Of a DNA stretch of 20,000 nt, positions 2,506-13,650 are shown in pieces (the stretch's first letter is position 1; each line of letters begins with the position of its first letter). Source of the stretch: an uncultured virus (IMG/VR IMGVR_UViG_3300042307_001070) (Duplodnaviria > Heunggongvirae > Uroviricota > Caudoviricetes); the IMG/VR virus record IMGVR_UViG_3300042307_001070. One strand, 5' to 3'. Below the pieces are notes generated by a model. That model ran no database searches. It was not told the DNA's origin and was given only the letters and a program-made list of their open reading frames with translations. The position numbers were made by a program, and so were the translations under genes.

Positions 2506-2775
2506 ATGAATAGATTAACAGAAAGAGATTTGTCAAGAATTGTTAGACAAGTTATTAAAGAAGACAAAGAAGATAAGAAAAAAACTATGAATGACATACC
2601 TGATAGTTTCTTTAAAAGTTTTTTATCAAAAACTAGTAGCATAATGACAAGCGAGGAGTTTTCTGATATTGAATCAATTTTAGGAAAAAGAGTTGGATCA
2701 AATGGTGAAGGTATGGGTGATGTTTTTGAAAAAATATTTATGGAAGCAAGAACAAGAAGAAGAAAAAACGATTAA
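2506..2775 (+). CDS. Hypothetical protein with RLTExDL leader
   Basis: MNRLTERDLSRIVRQVIKE N-terminus; ATATTTAT at 2481. Confidence 0.8.
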   Translation: MNRLTERDLSRIVRQVIKEDKEDKKKTMNDIPDSFFKSFLSKTSSIMTSEEFSDIESILGKRVGSNGEGMGDVFEKIFMEARTRRRKND

Positions 2776-2776
2776 T

Positions 2777-3220
2777 ATGAAAAAAATAATAAGACTTACA
2801 GAATCAGATTTAACAAGGATAGTAAAAAAGGCGATTAACGAATCCAAATCACTAACTAAAAAACAATTGGATCAGATGGTTAAAGATAGTCTAATCACCC
2901 CAAGAGATAGTGAAATCTTAAAACTATATTATATTGATAATATGAGTTTTGATGATATAGCTAATAAGTTTGATAGAACCGTATCAAGTACTAAACAACT
3001 AATTAAAAAGTTATATAATGATATTTCAGATGTTGATGGGTTAAAAAATAAAAGACAAAGTAAAGATGACTCACAAAAAGAAAACCATATAAATAAAGTT
3101 AAAAAAGAAATGAAAAGGGTTAAATTTTATCTTGATAATGGTTATTTAACTAAAAATGAAATTATGTCTTTATTTAAAGAAGTTTTAAATGGTGAAGAAA
3201 AATTAACAACATTAAGATAA
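2777..3220 (+). CDS. Hypothetical protein with RLTESDL leader and sigma-region-4-like HTH
   Basis: MKKIIRLTESDLTRIVKK (start moved to 2777); ITPRDSEILKLYYIDNMSFDDIANKFDRTVSSTKQ resembles sigma70 region 4 HTH. Confidence 0.75.
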   Translation: MKKIIRLTESDLTRIVKKAINESKSLTKKQLDQMVKDSLITPRDSEILKLYYIDNMSFDDIANKFDRTVSSTKQLIKKLYNDISDVDGLKNKRQSKDDSQKENHINKVKKEMKRVKFYLDNGYLTKNEIMSLFKEVLNGEEKLTTLR

Positions 3221-5959: not shown

Positions 5960-5966
5960 TATACAA

Positions 5967-6040
5967 AACCGGGTAGCTCAGCTGGTAGAGCAATCCTTTT
6001 TAAACAGGACGTGTCATTGGTTCAATCCCTTTCCCGGTTT
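5967..6040 (+). pseudogene. Degenerate tRNA (Lys-like body, 8-nt anticodon loop)
   Basis: AACCGGG/CCCGGTT; canonical D arm; TCCT-TTTTAAAC-AGGA; weak T stem ATTGG/CCTTT. Confidence 0.6.
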
Positions 6041-6064
6041 TTTTATTTATAAAATTAAAATATT

Positions 6065-6455: not shown

Positions 6456-7064
6456 TTATTTAATGTCTGTTGACTCTATTAGAGTATATGAAAACTTGTT
6501 TCCGTGAATTTTAGATGCCTTCTTACATAAAGACATAAACACATCAAAGTCTTTTACTCTTTTAAATACTTGACAACCCTCACTCCAATTTTCAACCCAC
6601 TGTGAGTCTTGACCTGCTTTGTGGATGTTAATACCAAAAATACCAGTATCGGTTTTTGTTTCTTCAAAAATAAGATCTTTGTTTGCATCTCTCCATACAG
6701 TTACATTTCCTAATCTTTGACAAAGAGCTTCATATTTTCCTTGATGTAAATCAATTTTCCATACACCTCTGTACTGACCCGGTACTAATCTTGCAACACC
6801 ATTTTTGTTATGGAATTGTTGAACACCCTTTTTACCTGGATCACATGTTGCCATCCAACAATAGTATTGCCAAGCACCTTTTTCATCTTTAAATGATAAT
6901 GTTAGATGATCGTCAAACACATTGGTCACTTTTTTATAAACCGCTGGTGACGTGTTTCTTACTCCTACGATATTCACATCGTAACTTTTGTTGTTTGCGT
7001 CTTCAAACCAAACATACCCTTTGGCTTTTACGGCAGCCTCAACCTGTTCTCTTGTGTAACTCAT
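6456..7064 (-). CDS. Putative L,D-transpeptidase (YkuD)-like cysteine peptidoglycan enzyme
   Basis: GINIH-x13-SEGCQV resembles the YkuD H...SxGC catalytic motif; ATATTTAT upstream on minus strand (7082-7089). Confidence 0.6.
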   Translation of the reverse strand: MSYTREQVEAAVKAKGYVWFEDANNKSYDVNIVGVRNTSPAVYKKVTNVFDDHLTLSFKDEKGAWQYYCWMATCDPGKKGVQQFHNKNGVARLVPGQYRGVWKIDLHQGKYEALCQRLGNVTVWRDANKDLIFEETKTDTGIFGINIHKAGQDSQWVENWSEGCQVFKRVKDFDVFMSLCKKASKIHGNKFSYTLIESTDIK

Positions 7065-7142
7065 AATAATTAATTTTGATTATAAATATTGTGATTTTTG
7101 AAAAGTAAATAGGTTTTTTAAGGTATTGTCATATTTATTAAT

Positions 7143-8762
7143 ATGAAATATCGTTTAAGAATAAAAATAACATTAGTTATCGCCGCTTTACTAATGATTG
7201 CATTTATGTGTGTTAAAATTGCGGTTCTTATTGGGTTACGAGAATCTACAGAAACAACTAGATGGCTAGAATTTTTTGGGGTTATTTCTCTCATCCCTAT
7301 ATCTGCGTTATTAATTAAAGACTTTATCAATTCCACTAAAGATACTGTATCTAAAGAATCGGTGGATAAATTGGTAGAATTAAAACATTTCTTAGATTCT
7401 TCTTCCATCATATCTAAAGCTGATGCAAAAGGAAAGATTACATACGTTAATCAAAAATTTACCGAAATCTCAGGTTATTCATTAGAAGATGTTCTTGGTA
7501 AAGACCACAATATTGTAAATTCTGGAACACACCCAAAAGAGTTTTGGTCTAATATGTATAAAACTGTTGTTGTGAATAAGGGTCTTTGGAATGAGGTTTG
7601 TGTCAATAGGGCAAAAGATGGAAGTCTTTATTATGTGGATACTTTTATTAAATGTAGTTTTGATGAAAACGGTAAATTGTTAGAGTTTATGTCAATTCGT
7701 CAAGACTTAACTTCTTTAAAAAAGACTGAACAAGAAATATCAAATAGAATGAATGCGATTAACAGATCAAATGCCGTTATTGAATTTGATTTAGATGGTA
7801 ACATAAAATTTGCAAATGATTTATTTTTAAGTACTTTAGGTTATGATTCGCACGATGAACTTGTTGGAAAACATCATAGTATATTTGTTGAAGATGTGGT
7901 AAAAGACTCTGAAGAATATTCAAACTTTTGGAAAACTTTAAAAGGTGGTCAATTCTTTATGGGTGAAATCATTAGAAAGAAAAAAAACGGATCTTTAATT
8001 TATCTCCAAGCGACATATAACCCCATCATAGGAACCGATGGGAAACCATATAGAGTAATGAAAATCGCCACTGACATCACCCAAAGTATTAATCAACAAA
8101 TGGAGATTGAAAAGAAAAATACCTATTTAGAGCATGCCGCAAAGATATTAAGACACGATATGCACTCTGGTATTAATACATATATGCCAAGAGGATTAAG
8201 CTCTTTAGAACGAAGATTAACTCCTGAAGATATAAAAAATTTAAAAATAGAATCCCCACTTAGAATGATTAAAGAAGGTTTAAAACATTCTCAAAAAGTA
8301 TATAAAGGGGTTTACGAATTTACCAATTTGGTTAAAAGAGATGTTGTTTTAAATAAAGCGGAATGTGATTTAAAATTAATCCTATCTGATTATCTATCAT
8401 CTACTGCATATATTAGTCAAGTTATTATAGATGAGTTACCAACTATTGAGGTAAACGAAGCACTATTTTGTACTGCGGTTGATAACTTGATTAGAAACGG
8501 TTTAAAGTATAATGATTCGGATTCTAAATTTGTTAAAATAACTTCAGACGAGAATTATGTTTACATTCAAGATAATGGTAGAGGAATCACACAAGAAGAT
8601 TTTGATCACCTATGTAAACCATATACCAGAAAAGAAGGACAAAAAGAATCTGGCACTGGTTTGGGTTTAAATATTTGTGTTGCTATATTAGAAGAACACG
8701 GGTTTAATATTACCTGTGAGAAAAATGAAATAGGAACAAAAATGAAAATAAAAATAAAATAA
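7143..8762 (+). CDS. Membrane-anchored PAS-PAS sensor histidine kinase
   Basis: Two N-terminal TMs; PAS1 (GKITYVNQKFTEISGY..NRAKDGSLY); PAS2 (GNIKFANDLF..LQATYNPI); H-box ILRHDM; N-box NLIRNGLKY; G1 DNGRGI; G2 GTGLGL. Confidence 0.93.
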   Translation: MKYRLRIKITLVIAALLMIAFMCVKIAVLIGLRESTETTRWLEFFGVISLIPISALLIKDFINSTKDTVSKESVDKLVELKHFLDSSSIISKADAKGKITYVNQKFTEISGYSLEDVLGKDHNIVNSGTHPKEFWSNMYKTVVVNKGLWNEVCVNRAKDGSLYYVDTFIKCSFDENGKLLEFMSIRQDLTSLKKTEQEISNRMNAINRSNAVIEFDLDGNIKFANDLFLSTLGYDSHDELVGKHHSIFVEDVVKDSEEYSNFWKTLKGGQFFMGEIIRKKKNGSLIYLQATYNPIIGTDGKPYRVMKIATDITQSINQQMEIEKKNTYLEHAAKILRHDMHSGINTYMPRGLSSLERRLTPEDIKNLKIESPLRMIKEGLKHSQKVYKGVYEFTNLVKRDVVLNKAECDLKLILSDYLSSTAYISQVIIDELPTIEVNEALFCTAVDNLIRNGLKYNDSDSKFVKITSDENYVYIQDNGRGITQEDFDHLCKPYTRKEGQKESGTGLGLNICVAILEEHGFNITCEKNEIGTKMKIKIK

Positions 8763-8780
8763 AAAACAAAAAAGAAAAAA

Positions 8781-9218
8781 ATGATTGATTCAATTTTATT
8801 AGTAGATGATGAGGATTTATTCCATTTGGTATTTGAAGACGCTTGTTCGTTACTTGACATAAGTTTGTCTTTAAATGCGTTAAATAGTTCTGACGAGGCA
8901 GCAAAACTATTTCAAAAATGGTTCCAGGATGGTGACAATAATGATAAACCTGAATGTGTGTTTGTTGACTTAAACATAATTGGTAGTTCTTTTGATGGTA
9001 TAGAGTTAATTAGAAAAGTTAATTTTGAATATGGTAATCACGTAGTTATTGGTATCATATCATCATCAAACGAACCGGAAGAACAAGCAAAAGCGCTCCA
9101 GGCTGGTGCTCAATTCTGGATTATTAAATCAGATGATATTGAACCTCGTTTAGAAGAGTTTAGAAAAGATTATGACGGTTACAAAAATAGAACCTTACCT
9201 TTTAAAGTATATAAATGA
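8781..9218 (+). CDS. Single-domain response regulator (CheY-like receiver)
   Basis: ILLVDDE; phospho-acceptor in VFVDLN; DGIELIR; ISSS; AGAQFWIIK; no output domain. Confidence 0.92.
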   Translation: MIDSILLVDDEDLFHLVFEDACSLLDISLSLNALNSSDEAAKLFQKWFQDGDNNDKPECVFVDLNIIGSSFDGIELIRKVNFEYGNHVVIGIISSSNEPEEQAKALQAGAQFWIIKSDDIEPRLEEFRKDYDGYKNRTLPFKVYK

Positions 9219-9889
9219 TAAAGTTAGATAAAAATAGTGAAGAAAAGTTAATAAACCTACTTGAGTCCAAGAACATTGGACTTGAGGGGAATGTTATAAA
9301 GTTGATTGAATCGGACAACGATTCGTTTAAAGACTATTTAAAAAAATGTACGGATAAAGATAAAGATTCTAGACGAAAACGATTAGAGATTACTAAAAAA
9401 ATACAATTACAAAACAATGAATTATCTGATCTAAACGAACAGAATCAAAAAATGATGGAAGATCTTCAGTCCACACTAAAAGAGGCTGAAGAACAAAAAG
9501 TAAAGATTGAAGGGCAAAACGGAGAGTTGATTAATTGGAGAGAAGAGAACGAAAAGATTCAACAGGAACTACAAAAGGAGATGATTAAATCTGAAACCGC
9601 AAGAATACGTGCGGAGGAAGCAAAAACAAACGCAATCAACGATCTTGACATACTTCAAAAGAAAAACCAAACAGAACTTATATCAACAATTGTTAGAGTT
9701 GCTCTTTATATTATTGTTGGTGTTGGTATTGTTACTACCGGAGTTTATGTATTCACTCTTGTTATGGGTAAAGACACACAAGTTATTAGTGCTGCTTGGT
9801 CTAACATATTTGGTATACTTCTAACAAACGCATTCTCAATAGTAGGAACCATTATGGGTATTAAATACGCAACAGAAAATAAACAATAA
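9215..9889 (+). CDS. Coiled-coil protein with two C-terminal TM helices
   Basis: Long heptad-rich E/Q/K region then two hydrophobic helices; ATGA overlap with response regulator. Confidence 0.8.
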   Translation: MIKLDKNSEEKLINLLESKNIGLEGNVIKLIESDNDSFKDYLKKCTDKDKDSRRKRLEITKKIQLQNNELSDLNEQNQKMMEDLQSTLKEAEEQKVKIEGQNGELINWREENEKIQQELQKEMIKSETARIRAEEAKTNAINDLDILQKKNQTELISTIVRVALYIIVGVGIVTTGVYVFTLVMGKDTQVISAAWSNIFGILLTNAFSIVGTIMGIKYATENKQ

Positions 9890-9900
9890 AACAAAAACGT

Positions 9901-10725
9901 ATGTTATTAAAAGTAGGATCTACAGGAGAAGATGTAAAAAAACTCCAAACAAAATTAGGATTAACCGCTGATGGTTCTTTTGGACCTAAAACTGAAACGG
10001 TGGTAAAAGAATGGCAAACTAAAAACGGATTAACCGCTGATGGTATTGTTGGTGACGGTACTTGGTCTAAAATGTTCGGGACAACTCAAGTAGTAAAAGA
10101 AGATGTTGTGATTACACCGGTAACAGGATTGAATATTGAAAAACTAAAAGGTCACATTCCTGATGTTGTTATCGCACAGATTCCTGAAACCGCAAAAAAA
10201 TTTAATATCACAACTAACTTGAGACTTGCTCACTTCTTATCACAATGCGGTCACGAGTCAGGAGGTTTTAAGGCGGTATCAGAAAATTTAAATTATTCTG
10301 CCGACGGATTAAAAAGAACGTTTGGTAAATACTTTCCTGGTAACTTGGCTGAATCATACGCAAAACAACCTGAAAAGATCGCATCAAGAGTCTATGCTGA
10401 CCGTATGAGTAACGGAAACGAAGCGTCAAAAGAAGGATATAAATTTAGAGGTAGAGGATACATCCAATTAACAGGTAAAGGAAACTACACCAGTTTTACA
10501 AAATTTATCGGTGAAGATTGTGTTGCGAACCCTGACTTAGTTGCAACTAAATACCCATTGGCATCTGCGGCATTTTTCTTTGACTCAAACAAACTTTGGT
10601 CAATATGTGATAAAGGAGCTGATGATGCTACGGTTACTGCGGTAACAAAAAGAGTAAATGGAGGAACAATAGGTCTTGCGGATAGAATTAAACACTTCAA
10701 AGAGTATTATAACTTATTAAAATAA
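9901..10725 (+). CDS. Endolysin: peptidoglycan-binding domain plus GH19 lysozyme/chitinase-like domain
   Basis: PGBD (GSTGEDVKKLQ..ADGSFGPKT..DGIVG); AHFLSQCGHESGGF, ENLNYS, FRGRGYIQLTGK, VTKRVNGG motifs. Confidence 0.93.
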   Translation: MLLKVGSTGEDVKKLQTKLGLTADGSFGPKTETVVKEWQTKNGLTADGIVGDGTWSKMFGTTQVVKEDVVITPVTGLNIEKLKGHIPDVVIAQIPETAKKFNITTNLRLAHFLSQCGHESGGFKAVSENLNYSADGLKRTFGKYFPGNLAESYAKQPEKIASRVYADRMSNGNEASKEGYKFRGRGYIQLTGKGNYTSFTKFIGEDCVANPDLVATKYPLASAAFFFDSNKLWSICDKGADDATVTAVTKRVNGGTIGLADRIKHFKEYYNLLK

Positions 10726-10734
10726 AATAAAAAA

Positions 10735-11589
10735 ATGGCAGAAAATAATACAATATTTTTTAAACTTGAGGAATATTACGACAACGATGGATCTGAGGAG
10801 TTACAAGCATCTACCGATGTAAATGGTAAGGTTAATATCTCAGTAATTAATTTACTAAATAAGGAAACCGCTGCGGATCAACATAGAGAAGTTGTTGGTT
10901 TAACTCCATTATCACGATACACCATAAATGATACGACAGAAAATTTATTTAGTGTTAGTTTTATAACTGACGATGATGGGTATACTAAAGTTGACCTATC
11001 CAAAATGTTATTAAACACTACATTTATAAAGTTTTATCAAAAGTACAAAGGTGAGGTAACTTTAAATGTAACAATTGAAATACCAAAAACAAATAAATAT
11101 AACGTTTTTGTTGGTAACGCTAAAATAACACCATCGTGGAAAAAAGAAGAATCAGGAATTATATTTGAAAGTTATGACTATTACAATAATGACGATACTA
11201 TCATTTTATCACCAATTGAAGATAAAGTAACTGATTTGGCAACATTAAGACAAACATATAAAACAGTTGAAGAAAATTACCTTTTAGTTAAAAAAAGATA
11301 TGAGAGTCAAATTGTTGGTGAGGTTGATTTAGAAATTGATACTACGGAAACTTATGAACCTAAAAGTCTTAAAACCGTTATAACAAGATTATTAGAATTT
11401 CAAGTGGGTACTTTACAACCGGCACTTGAATATACAAAAACCGCAAAACTAACAACAGAATACGACAGGTTAAACACAATGGATAAATTAGTTAATATTT
11501 TATCTAAAATGTATCCAAATATTACTATTGAAGATGGTGAAGGAATTCCTTATAATTCGGATATTGATCCAAAATTGGAAACATTGTAA
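10735..11589 (+). CDS. Hypothetical protein
   Basis: 284-aa ORF 9 nt after endolysin. Confidence 0.8.
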   Translation: MAENNTIFFKLEEYYDNDGSEELQASTDVNGKVNISVINLLNKETAADQHREVVGLTPLSRYTINDTTENLFSVSFITDDDGYTKVDLSKMLLNTTFIKFYQKYKGEVTLNVTIEIPKTNKYNVFVGNAKITPSWKKEESGIIFESYDYYNNDDTIILSPIEDKVTDLATLRQTYKTVEENYLLVKKRYESQIVGEVDLEIDTTETYEPKSLKTVITRLLEFQVGTLQPALEYTKTAKLTTEYDRLNTMDKLVNILSKMYPNITIEDGEGIPYNSDIDPKLETL

Positions 11590-11624
11590 TATTTATATAT
11601 AAATAAACTTTTAAATTTTCAATT

Positions 11625-11792
11625 ATGAAACTTACAAAAGAACAAGTATTAGGGATCGTTAGACACACATTAACATTTGTTGGTGGTATTGTTGTAATGA
11701 AAGGTCTTGTTGATGAGACGGTCGTTACTGAGATCATCGGTGGTGTTATGACATTAGTCGGAACTATTTGGTCAGTTATTAACAAAAAATAA
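11625..11792 (+). CDS. 55-aa putative holin (Pam3 gp28-like), absent from ORF track
   Basis: MKLTKEQVLGIVRHTLTFVGGIVVMKGLVDETVVTEIIGGVMTLVGTIWSVINKK: two short TMs, RH.LT..GG and WS..K pattern. Confidence 0.7.
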   Translation: MKLTKEQVLGIVRHTLTFVGGIVVMKGLVDETVVTEIIGGVMTLVGTIWSVINKK

Positions 11793-11811
11793 TTTTGTTA
11801 AATTAATACTT

Positions 11812-11838
11812 AACCCCCATAAAAAGTGGGGGTTTTTT
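11812..11838 (+). terminator. Intrinsic terminator
   Basis: AACCCCCAT/GTGGGGGTT stem followed by T-run. Confidence 0.8.
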
Positions 11839-11864
11839 AATTTATAATATATTTATTAATTAGT

Positions 11865-12473
11865 ATGGAAAATTATGTAGGAATAGTGATCGCATTTATA
11901 ACAGGTGTGATAGGACCAATCTTGGTTCTTTATATAAAGAGTAAGTTGGAGAAGAAGGAGAAACCTGATATGGTTAAGGAAACATTAAGGGTTGCGGAGT
12001 TGGTTACAAACAAAATAGAACACATTAAGGACGAATTTAATGCTGACAGAGTTTGGATTACACAATTCCATAACGGAGGAAACTTCTACCCAACAGGTAA
12101 ATCAATGGCAAAGTTTTCAATCATGTATGAAACGGTACATCCAGGTGTTCAATCAGTACAAAGTAACTTTCACAATATACCTGTTAATCTATTTTCAAAA
12201 TCAATCAACCAACTATTAAGTAACGACGTTATAGAAATACCGGACTATAAAGACGAGACAATAGCGACTTATGGTTTAAAATATATTGCAGAAGATACTG
12301 GATGTAAATCAGGTTATTTATTTGCTATTAAAACTATTGATGATAGATTTATCGGGACTTTAGGTGTTGAATATACAAAAAGAAAAACGAAATTAAATAT
12401 TGAATCAATAAACCATTTATTAGTACATGCAACATCACTTGGTGGTGTACTTATGACACACTTGCAACAATAA
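11865..12473 (+). CDS. Single-TM protein with GAF-like domain (T4 holin T-like architecture)
   Basis: N-terminal TM; ADRVWITQFHNG...GCKSGYLFAIK...FIGTLGVEY matches GAF pattern. Confidence 0.6.
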   Translation: MENYVGIVIAFITGVIGPILVLYIKSKLEKKEKPDMVKETLRVAELVTNKIEHIKDEFNADRVWITQFHNGGNFYPTGKSMAKFSIMYETVHPGVQSVQSNFHNIPVNLFSKSINQLLSNDVIEIPDYKDETIATYGLKYIAEDTGCKSGYLFAIKTIDDRFIGTLGVEYTKRKTKLNIESINHLLVHATSLGGVLMTHLQQ

Positions 12474-13011: not shown

Positions 13012-13584
13012 TTACTCAACTCTGAATATCTTTACATAATCAACAAATACAAATATAGTACCGTCTTGATTCATAACCGAATGACAAGCAAACACTCCCG
13101 GTAAGTTTGAAGAATCAAACTCCATATTTTGAACTTGTTTGTGACCCTCAGAGTTTTCCCACGCAATTACAATTCTAGAAGCCAACTCATCATAAGAAGA
13201 ATAATCCACGTTGGACTTAAATGCGTTTTCATATAAACTCATTTTTGGTAATCCGTTTTGTAACATTACACTTTCACCACCATAAATATTTTTGGCTTCA
13301 GATATTATTTTATTTCTTATTGAAAGATCGTTATATCTCTCTTTGTTTGGTGGGTGATAAAAAGATCCCGATAACGAAACCTCAATACAATTAGGGTTTG
13401 AAAACAATTGATAAACGGATTTTGAAGTGATCAATGTATCAATACCTCTATCACGTCTTAATTTGTTTATCTCTATTAAAACTTTTTTATTTAAAAGTTG
13501 AGAGTTAAACGTGGAGTAAGTAACCCCCTGACCTAATACGAAATTTAGTACAAGAGAAAAAACAAGAACAAATAGGGTTTTCAT
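13012..13584 (-). CDS. Secreted CAP (SCP/PR-1) domain protein
   Basis: Signal peptide MKTLFVLVFSLV; INKLRRDRG, FYHP, EN, AWENSEGH motifs; start moved to 13584. Confidence 0.7.
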   Translation of the reverse strand: MKTLFVLVFSLVLNFVLGQGVTYSTFNSQLLNKKVLIEINKLRRDRGIDTLITSKSVYQLFSNPNCIEVSLSGSFYHPPNKERYNDLSIRNKIISEAKNIYGGESVMLQNGLPKMSLYENAFKSNVDYSSYDELASRIVIAWENSEGHKQVQNMEFDSSNLPGVFACHSVMNQDGTIFVFVDYVKIFRVE

Positions 13585-13650
13585 GAGATAATATTTTTGA
13601 TTTATGATGATACAAATATACAAATTTATTTTTAATTCATATTTATTAAT

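Follow-up and report, generated by a model that had tools for sequence, protein, structure and literature searches.

Why would a phage carry a complete His-Asp relay directly in front of an endolysin gene? The question is raised by a 20,000-nucleotide stretch of an uncultured Caudoviricetes virus (IMG/VR IMGVR_UViG_3300042307_001070), here called the window, which closes a virus record of 73.4 kb (G000; 31.5% GC, 18 tRNA genes, approximately 25% complete). A sensor histidine kinase, a single-domain receiver and a coiled-coil protein with two transmembrane (TM) helices, here termed the effector, are encoded in series and followed by a GH19 endolysin. Our reading is that these proteins would constitute a late His-Asp relay whose membrane hairpin tunes host lysis, and we give this reading as a whole a probability of about 0.5. 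Its two parts differ in strength: judged from the genes, the wiring from kinase through receiver to effector hairpin is highly probable, whereas for lysis as the output of the relay we lean towards acceptance. The unit comprises the following features (positions in the window; lengths in amino acids, aa):

7143..8762, + strand: sensor histidine kinase, 539 aa, TM-TM-PAS1-PAS2-DHp-HATPase_c (two PAS and HATPase_c by Pfam)
8781..9218, + strand: single-domain receiver, 145 aa (Pfam PF00072 Response_reg, above cut-off)
9215..9889, + strand: effector (coiled-coil/two-TM protein), 224 aa, with an ATGA overlap with the receiver gene at 9215-9218
9215..9424, + strand: N-domain of the effector, aa 1-70, proposed docking site of the receiver, from its coupling to the receiver and its fusions
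9413..9646, + strand: effector coiled coil N67-L144, 77 aa or 11 heptads, proposed signal-transmitting linker
9644..9889, + strand: effector two-helix membrane hairpin, proposed output, from its conserved polar/small stripe and its fusions to sensors
9901..10725, + strand: endolysin, PG_binding_1 and Glyco_hydro_19 (Pfam; phrog_181 endolysin, E 5.5e-69)

Open reading frames (ORFs) and Pfam bore out the original prediction, made from the letters of the window, that the kinase, receiver, effector and GH19 genes are co-directional with gaps of under 20 nucleotides (nt; 18, -4 and 11 nt) and that the receiver is ATGA-coupled to the coiled-coil gene. The kinase described there as PAS-PAS is intact and has both PAS domains and HATPase_c, but two N-terminal TM helices (aa 12-30 and 44-62) had been omitted. 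Its phospho-accepting residue, His338 in the DHp (nt 8154-8156), was assigned by position, since the HisKA Pfam profile found no match in the kinase. The N, G1, F and G2 boxes are present (N452, D477-G481, F487, G506, G508), and among 160 kinase cores H338, N452, D477, N478, G479, G481 and G508 are conserved at 100% and G506 at 97%. In the receiver, D9, D10, D63 (nt 8967-8969), S94, W113 and K116 are intact and 99% conserved across 180 receiver/effector pairs, and no output domain was found by Pfam. Comparison supports a relay that is complete within the phage, keeps its catalytic residues and lacks a DNA-binding output.

What the relay senses is suggested by the two PAS domains. The kinase matched 3EWK, 2GJ3 and 8DIK in the PDB, the best match of the tandem PAS being MmoS (3EWK, E 7.5e-28), and the search placed PAS1 nearest MmoS, NifL and Aer, in agreement with the Aer/NifL-type resemblance predicted for it. 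PAS2 presumably resembles BdlA, and FAD (flavin adenine dinucleotide) has been predicted for the BdlA PAS domains (PMC8694187). PAS1 residues G97, H122, M138, N155 and R186 are equivalent to G28, H53, M69, N85 and R115 of the Aer FAD pocket, as given in the excerpt of PMC9668731, and H122 is kept in 97% and N155 in 100% of homologues. In the part of PMC10468136 that covers FAD-binding PAS domains, a Trp on F-alpha is the primary FAD determinant and clusters keep at least two of Trp, His and Asn; the comparison set was the NifL/MmoS/Aer clusters 4, 9 and 14. At least two of these residues are found both in PAS1 (H122 and N155, plus R186) and in PAS2 (W263 and H244/H245), where Trp263, its position matched by eye, is invariant (74/74). 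Counting against flavin binding by PAS1, the primary determinant is absent there, Tyr139 replacing Aer Trp70 in 79/79 homologues.

Redox sensing by the kinase, as originally proposed, is plausible from the retained PAS1 pocket residues, and a flavin is likely to be its means, but the main FAD determinant is Tyr rather than Trp and the inputs vary. Relatives have GAF-PAS-PAS or single-PAS inputs, and two kinase genes occur in 66/352 relay loci, the second typically combining a hydrophobic leader at the N terminus with an extracytoplasmic region and a TM helix. What is sensed thus varies, as a GAF domain or an extra kinase with extracytoplasmic input is present in many relatives. At L157 (7545-9559), L164, L177 and others, the second kinase has a leader, an extracytoplasmic coiled region and a TM helix, and is often preceded by a secreted-looking protein of approximately 204 aa (SP11); the two could possibly be paired periplasmic sensors that act on the same receiver.

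The receiver lies directly upstream of 322/324 effector genes, and the N-domain comes next after 339/343 receivers. Natural kinase-receiver fusions also exist (P0288-P0290). Covariation between receiver and effector (180 pairs, effective number of sequences 78) placed all of its top pairs in the variable loop 48-55 or at other variable sites. The predicted effector model (predicted local distance difference test score, pLDDT, 84) consists of a small N-domain, one helix spanning 36-183 and a second TM helix. The effector had no match in Pfam, PHROG, NCBIfam or the PDB, and a fold search gave one uncharacterised phage homologue in BFVD and nothing in the PDB; in the ESM Atlas the hairpin matched only unnamed viral clusters under 0.9 and the N-domain matched nothing.

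The strongest argument for the wiring comes from the way in which the effector domains recombine. The hairpin is fused elsewhere to PAS-PAS (60 distinct sequences), to a single PAS or to GAF, and a receiver or kinase gene is present at 0/88 of these loci. Each of 30/30 long contigs has one hairpin gene per record (22 relay-type, 8 fused), and near-complete genomes have exactly one receiver gene when of the relay type (3/3) and none when of the fused form (2 genomes). Conversely, the N-domain is fused to HisKA and HATPase_c in approximately 29 clusters, one of them labelled as a Bacteroidota metagenome-assembled genome (MAG; P0186). The sole N-domain-kinase contig with context (L295, 1058 bp; 1 of 80 metagenome loci) has the same kinase and receiver families preceding an N-domain-coil-HisKA protein. 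Short 'hairpin-only' proteins, which appear to be fragments or chimeras, were left out of the analysis, as were N-domains or hairpins joined to unrelated enzymes, all of which were single sequences.

The coil that joins these domains appears to be locked in phase. The distance from N67 to L144 was 28, 35, 42, 49, 56, 63, 70 or 77 in 195/198 measured homologues and 88 in the other 3 (among 207 candidates, 9 lacked an anchor from which to measure), such that 8/9 coil lengths fall in one class modulo 7, with a probability of approximately 1e-5 if lengths were random. N-domain-to-His distances were 33, 47 and 54 (43 sequences, near-copies included), PAS-to-hairpin distances 36 or 43 (five distances of 164, measured from the first PAS, were dropped) and the PAS-to-His distance 27; the offset of His versus L144 is 5 modulo 7 from both inputs, a coincidence with one chance in seven. 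Heptad periodicity is described as a mark of coiled-coil signalling linkers in the portion of PMC6798134 that treats them. Inputs (N-domain, PAS/GAF) and outputs (kinase, hairpin) thus appear to have been swapped two by two and in register, and this is our strongest ground for taking the hairpin as the relay output.

Some observations weigh against this wiring. Heptad insertions and deletions are expected of any continuous coiled coil, and the effector occurs without an adjacent kinase or receiver at L408 (3150-3806) and L413 (5574-6230), and with a receiver but without an adjacent kinase at L453 (5393-6501). L443 has the same flanks as L408, but there the full relay is present. Overall, the path from kinase to receiver, N-domain, coil and hairpin is well supported by comparison because of the gene coupling, the fusions and the heptad coil lengths. 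The earlier proposal that the phospho-receiver acts on the coiled-coil membrane protein, i.e. that this protein is the receiver's target, is supported in the same comparative way, by the 322/324 coupling, the domain swaps and the heptad linker.

Could kinase and receiver serve instead to hijack or buffer host two-component pathways, with the coiled-coil gene merely co-transcribed? The closest solved receiver structure is 3ILH, which we take to be from Bacteroidota, and stand-alone receivers can act as phosphate sinks, both of which would suit such a role. We consider it improbable, given that the N-domain occurs only with this receiver family, that a fused sensor takes the place of the N-domain where the relay is absent, that the linker is heptad-locked, and that the receiver family was not found in three overlapping samples of 401 Bacteroidota-centred genomes each (positive control 5/5). 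Even less credible, and largely refuted by conservation, is a recently captured bacterial operon hitchhiking without function in the phage. The N-domain-kinase version in at least one Bacteroidota MAG (P0186) and an apparently frameshifted receiver on a MAG contig (L142) would fit this, whereas at least 584 viral loci encode the receiver family (82-100% identity among the best 80), the active sites of the relay are intact, and the hairpin was found in only 8/185,579 species genomes, all 8 on MAG contigs of 3-89 kb that are phage-like or ambiguous. The original prediction had named trios on a bacterial chromosome as what would speak against it, and this was not borne out: the hairpin and receiver searches gave only these 8 contigs and no receivers in the three samples. 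No match to receiver or effector was found among 50,697 GenBank phage records.

In the mechanism that we propose, the kinase would autophosphorylate at His338 according to its PAS input, probably flavin redox and with it the respiratory state of the host, and the phosphate would pass to receiver Asp63, as suggested by the intact residues, the fixed gene order and the natural fusions. The receiver would then dock on the effector N-domain, and a helical twist would travel down the phase-locked coil to the two-TM hairpin, a step to which the domain swaps and heptad lengths point. The hairpin may oligomerise or contact a holin-type protein, such that the adjacent endolysin would be released earlier or later, as the gene neighbourhood suggests. 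The relay would be expressed late in infection.

Whether lysis is the output was judged from the genes around the relay, which in the window are:

6456..7064, - strand: 'LYS', divergent candidate wall hydrolase adjoining the kinase (phrog_33083 endolysin, E 3.4e-9)
7131..7138, + strand: ATATTTAT, promoter-like motif, 4 nt 5' of the kinase gene
10735..11589, + strand: 284-aa ORF found only in few close relatives, no family above cut-off
11625..11792, + strand: holin, Pam3 gp28 family (Phage_holin_10; PF23987, E 2.3e-17)
11812..11834, + strand: terminator-like hairpin 3' of the holin
11865..12473, + strand: 202-aa protein with TM and globular domain (GAF-like by eye only), a separate unit

Lineages were defined by de-duplicating loci to below 80% effector identity with at least 1 kb on both sides (n=60). 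In 34/60 lineages a wall hydrolase is encoded within 1 kb; at identity thresholds of 90%, 70% and 60% the counts are 48/87, 19/41 and 6/21, respectively. Hydrolase density is 0.32/kb within 1 kb of the module versus 0.018/kb at 4-10 kb. The neighbouring enzymes belong to several classes (GH19, GH24, M15, LYS and SLT) in several arrangements, with lysis genes flanking both sides in L379, L384, L398, L422 and L423, and on a quick tree the enzyme is scattered (30/53 lineages, 15 changes versus 17.6 for shuffles). A GH19 orthologue is carried by 12 of 22 relay contigs, which were picked for length and lineage spread, five of them first for lacking an adjacent enzyme; in 10/12 no more than 3.6 kb separates it from the hairpin gene (0.7 expected at random, shared descent ignored), and the hairpin gene is directly 5' of the endolysin in 6/12. 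Among fused forms, a hydrolase occurs within 1 kb in 25/29 at 90% identity, which are not 29 independent cases because the fused forms are a close family (6 clusters at 80%); on fused-form contigs it lies within 1.4 kb of the hairpin match in 7/8, and in the eighth a Pfam holin lies 1.3 kb away.

The counterweight is considerable. No lytic enzyme is found within 1 kb in 26/60 lineages, in 15/21 at below 60% identity, or at four MAG-contig relay loci (L135-137, L142); the GH19 orthologue is 26 and 58 kb from the hairpin gene in 2/12 contigs, and the Pfam holin at least 18 kb from the module in 9/12. DnaK (7/60) and metallophosphatase (5/60) also recur within 1 kb, both declining with distance, and the enzyme profiles were built from the same neighbourhoods in which the hydrolases were counted. 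A Pfam scan of 80 other neighbours revealed no overlooked hydrolase. The lysis link is recurrent, not obligatory: about half of the relay lineages, and most deep ones, are without a hydrolase neighbour. The original prediction of a relay built into the lysis cassette was overstated for the holin, the family of which lies within 1 kb of the module in only 2/12 trio contigs.

The same relay and hairpin might accordingly do some other late job at the membrane (tuning of proton-motive force or respiration, superinfection exclusion, control of envelope stress), with endolysins close by on account of a tendency of late envelope genes to cluster and to travel as a group. The lineages without an adjacent hydrolase, the recurrence of DnaK, Hsp20 and YceI as neighbours, the extracytoplasmic-sensing kinases added in many relatives and a holin family unlinked to the module would all fit. 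Several unrelated hydrolase classes in many arrangements scattered on the tree, the hydrolase or holin beside the hairpin in all eight fused-form contigs, and a hairpin-GH19 tie tighter than the holin-GH19 tie argue against it, and we regard a non-lysis role as somewhat unlikely. In some lineages (L346 5025-5552, L195, L308) a YceI-like gene is inserted at the relay or within it, and DnaK and Hsp20 genes recur nearby.

A special case of the lysis reading, in which the hairpin would not regulate another holin but would be a signal-gated holin or pinholin-like pore in its own right, seems to us unlikely to a greater degree. Two TM helices, a short outer loop and a polar/small face on the second helix (N197, G200, T204, S208, G211 and G215, conserved at 93-98%), suited to tight packing or a pore, are what such a protein would need; the hairpin gene is present in one copy per record, directly 5' of the endolysin in half of the GH19 contigs, with the Pfam holin usually far off. 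The Pfam holin adjoins the GH19 orthologue in only 2/7 and lies within 1 kb of the module in 5/60 lineages, and the hairpin is the more faithful companion of endolysins than the recognised holin because of these GH19-hairpin and GH19-holin distances. On the other side, the effector matched no holin or antiholin family and had no sequence match to the T4 lysis families in PHROGs, and a dimeric coiled-coil stalk is, to our knowledge, no known holin design. Moreover, a separate holin is often available because Pfam holins are present in 15/30 long contigs and H3 or H55 beside the fused hairpin in 18/29 clusters. H3 (L262 1849-2121) and H55 (L039 6437-6733) are small two-TM families without a family match that recur beside hairpin genes and endolysins, and are candidate unnamed holins.

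Regulation of lysis remains our preferred output, and other potential lysis genes lie in the same record. LYS has a conserved His148...Ser161-x-Gly163-Cys164 motif, which we take to be like that of L,D-transpeptidase-fold enzymes, and a peptidoglycan-binding domain is fused in 10 distinct homologues; it had no Pfam catalytic match and may represent an unnamed L,D-peptidase family. Lysis genes are dispersed in G000, because a spanin-like TM/coiled-coil pair (G000:C1 21530-22292), homologous to pairs beside fused hairpins, and an M23 peptidase (G000:C1 42673-44034) lie 18-40 kb from the module. A small holin had been predicted to follow the endolysin; the Pfam holin is there, but the 284-aa ORF stands between it and GH19. 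The TM gene predicted to come next is also present, but its GAF domain was confirmed neither by Pfam (no GAF match at E<=1), nor by a PDB sequence search (a chance match only) nor by folding (pLDDT 40, too poor for a fold search), and the GAF profile of P0019 gave no match to the protein. This gene lies within 1 kb of the trio in 0/60 lineages and is not a fixed neighbour of the module.

The claim of one motif for the whole unit was correct in that ATATTTAT does occur at 7131-7138 and is over-represented (15 copies in the window versus 4.1 expected; 0/200 shuffles reach 15), but the holin (11589-11596) and the 202-aa TM gene (11849) carry their own copies, and the terminator-like hairpin sets the latter gene apart from the holin. 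A sigma-70 promoter scan was below background. In G000, the motif precedes the M23 peptidase gene and was found before none of the 8 genes annotated with replication, sigma or methylase functions, from which we infer that it is probably a phage late promoter. Many unrelated-looking ORFs, usually behind ATATTTAT, share an N-terminal peptide of the M-K/R-K-x-I-R/K-L-T-E-x-D-L type (window 3281, 18603, 19290 and inside 2693-3220; G000 6048, 47418, 51074 and 51505). Elsewhere in the window, a 203-aa secreted-looking protein (13012-13623, - strand; no match in a family search) is convergent on the late genes. A 13-tRNA cluster, which contains an HTH-HNH (helix-turn-helix) protein and an RNase H-like protein (443-985 and 1725-2255), ends in an ARAGORN tRNA with a four-base anticodon TTAA (5966-6041, + strand) that could be a pseudo-tRNA or a stop-reading or frameshift tRNA.

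In the literature covered, from which subscription journals were mostly absent, no description of a relay-hairpin system was found. For freshwater jumbo phages, the main text of PMC9723584 contains no mention of kinases (0 matches), and two sensor genes appear in the part of its supplement covered, a GAF histidine kinase and a PAS chemoreceptor-like gene, neither with comment; the jumbo-phage receiver in the excerpt of PMC7824862 is only an unrelated cREC. The locus represents a form of two-component signalling whose input and output domains are undescribed. Even without a role in lysis, it defines two new modules: an input domain that accompanies the receiver, and a membrane hairpin as output, with a phase-locked coil between them. 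If lysis is gated, this would be a new kind of lysis control: known lysis timing depends on holin accumulation or direct antiholin binding, whereas here a phage kinase relay with a dedicated membrane effector would let the virus adjust its latent period to the energy state of the host or to outside cues, and this in an abundant group of lake phages with predicted Bacteroidota hosts. A tentative generalisation, which we hold with slightly less conviction than the reading for this locus, is that these jumbo phages time lysis by phosphorylation of the bacterial type, with redox and, in some lineages, extracytoplasmic cues converging on one receiver and passing through the coil to a new class of signal-gated holin or antiholin, and that other phages use a one-component PAS/GAF fusion. 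The system is small, with three genes, and could be tested in a laboratory host.

Single-domain response regulators are known from the CheA-CheY-FliM and DivK-DivL pathways, and the phage relay is like these in having a kinase, a stand-alone receiver and a presumed output through protein-protein contact without a DNA-binding regulator; unlike them, it is phage-encoded and its proposed target is an undescribed N-domain/coil/membrane-hairpin protein. With the FAD-PAS redox sensors MmoS, NifL and Aer it shares the PAS1 pocket residues and, for the tandem PAS, a best match to MmoS, and it differs in having Tyr139 for Trp70 and a membrane-anchored kinase in a phage. The heptad periodicity of the input-output linker is like that of the coiled-coil-linked sensor kinase YF1, as presented in the covered portion of PMC6798134, whereas the effector input is a receiver-associated domain and its output a membrane hairpin. 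Freshwater jumbo phages with a T4-type capsid gene, bS21 and predicted Bacteroidota hosts are described in the sections covered of PMC9723584. Related contigs of up to 290-320 kb resemble them, with a T4-type capsid gene and, in 4/5, bS21; in 3 of these 4 contigs bS21 is encoded on the reverse strand, no more than 5 kb from the capsid gene. This phage itself may, by relationship, belong to that clade and infect Bacteroidota. Finally, in the part of PMC11413866 on T4 lysis inhibition, holin T is bound by antiholin RI, which is like the control proposed here from genes in being signal-dependent and exerted through contacts of proteins at the membrane; in T4, the binding is direct and triggered by superinfection, without phosphorylation or a PAS sensor, whereas in the phage described here the signal would reach the membrane through a kinase, a receiver and a coil.

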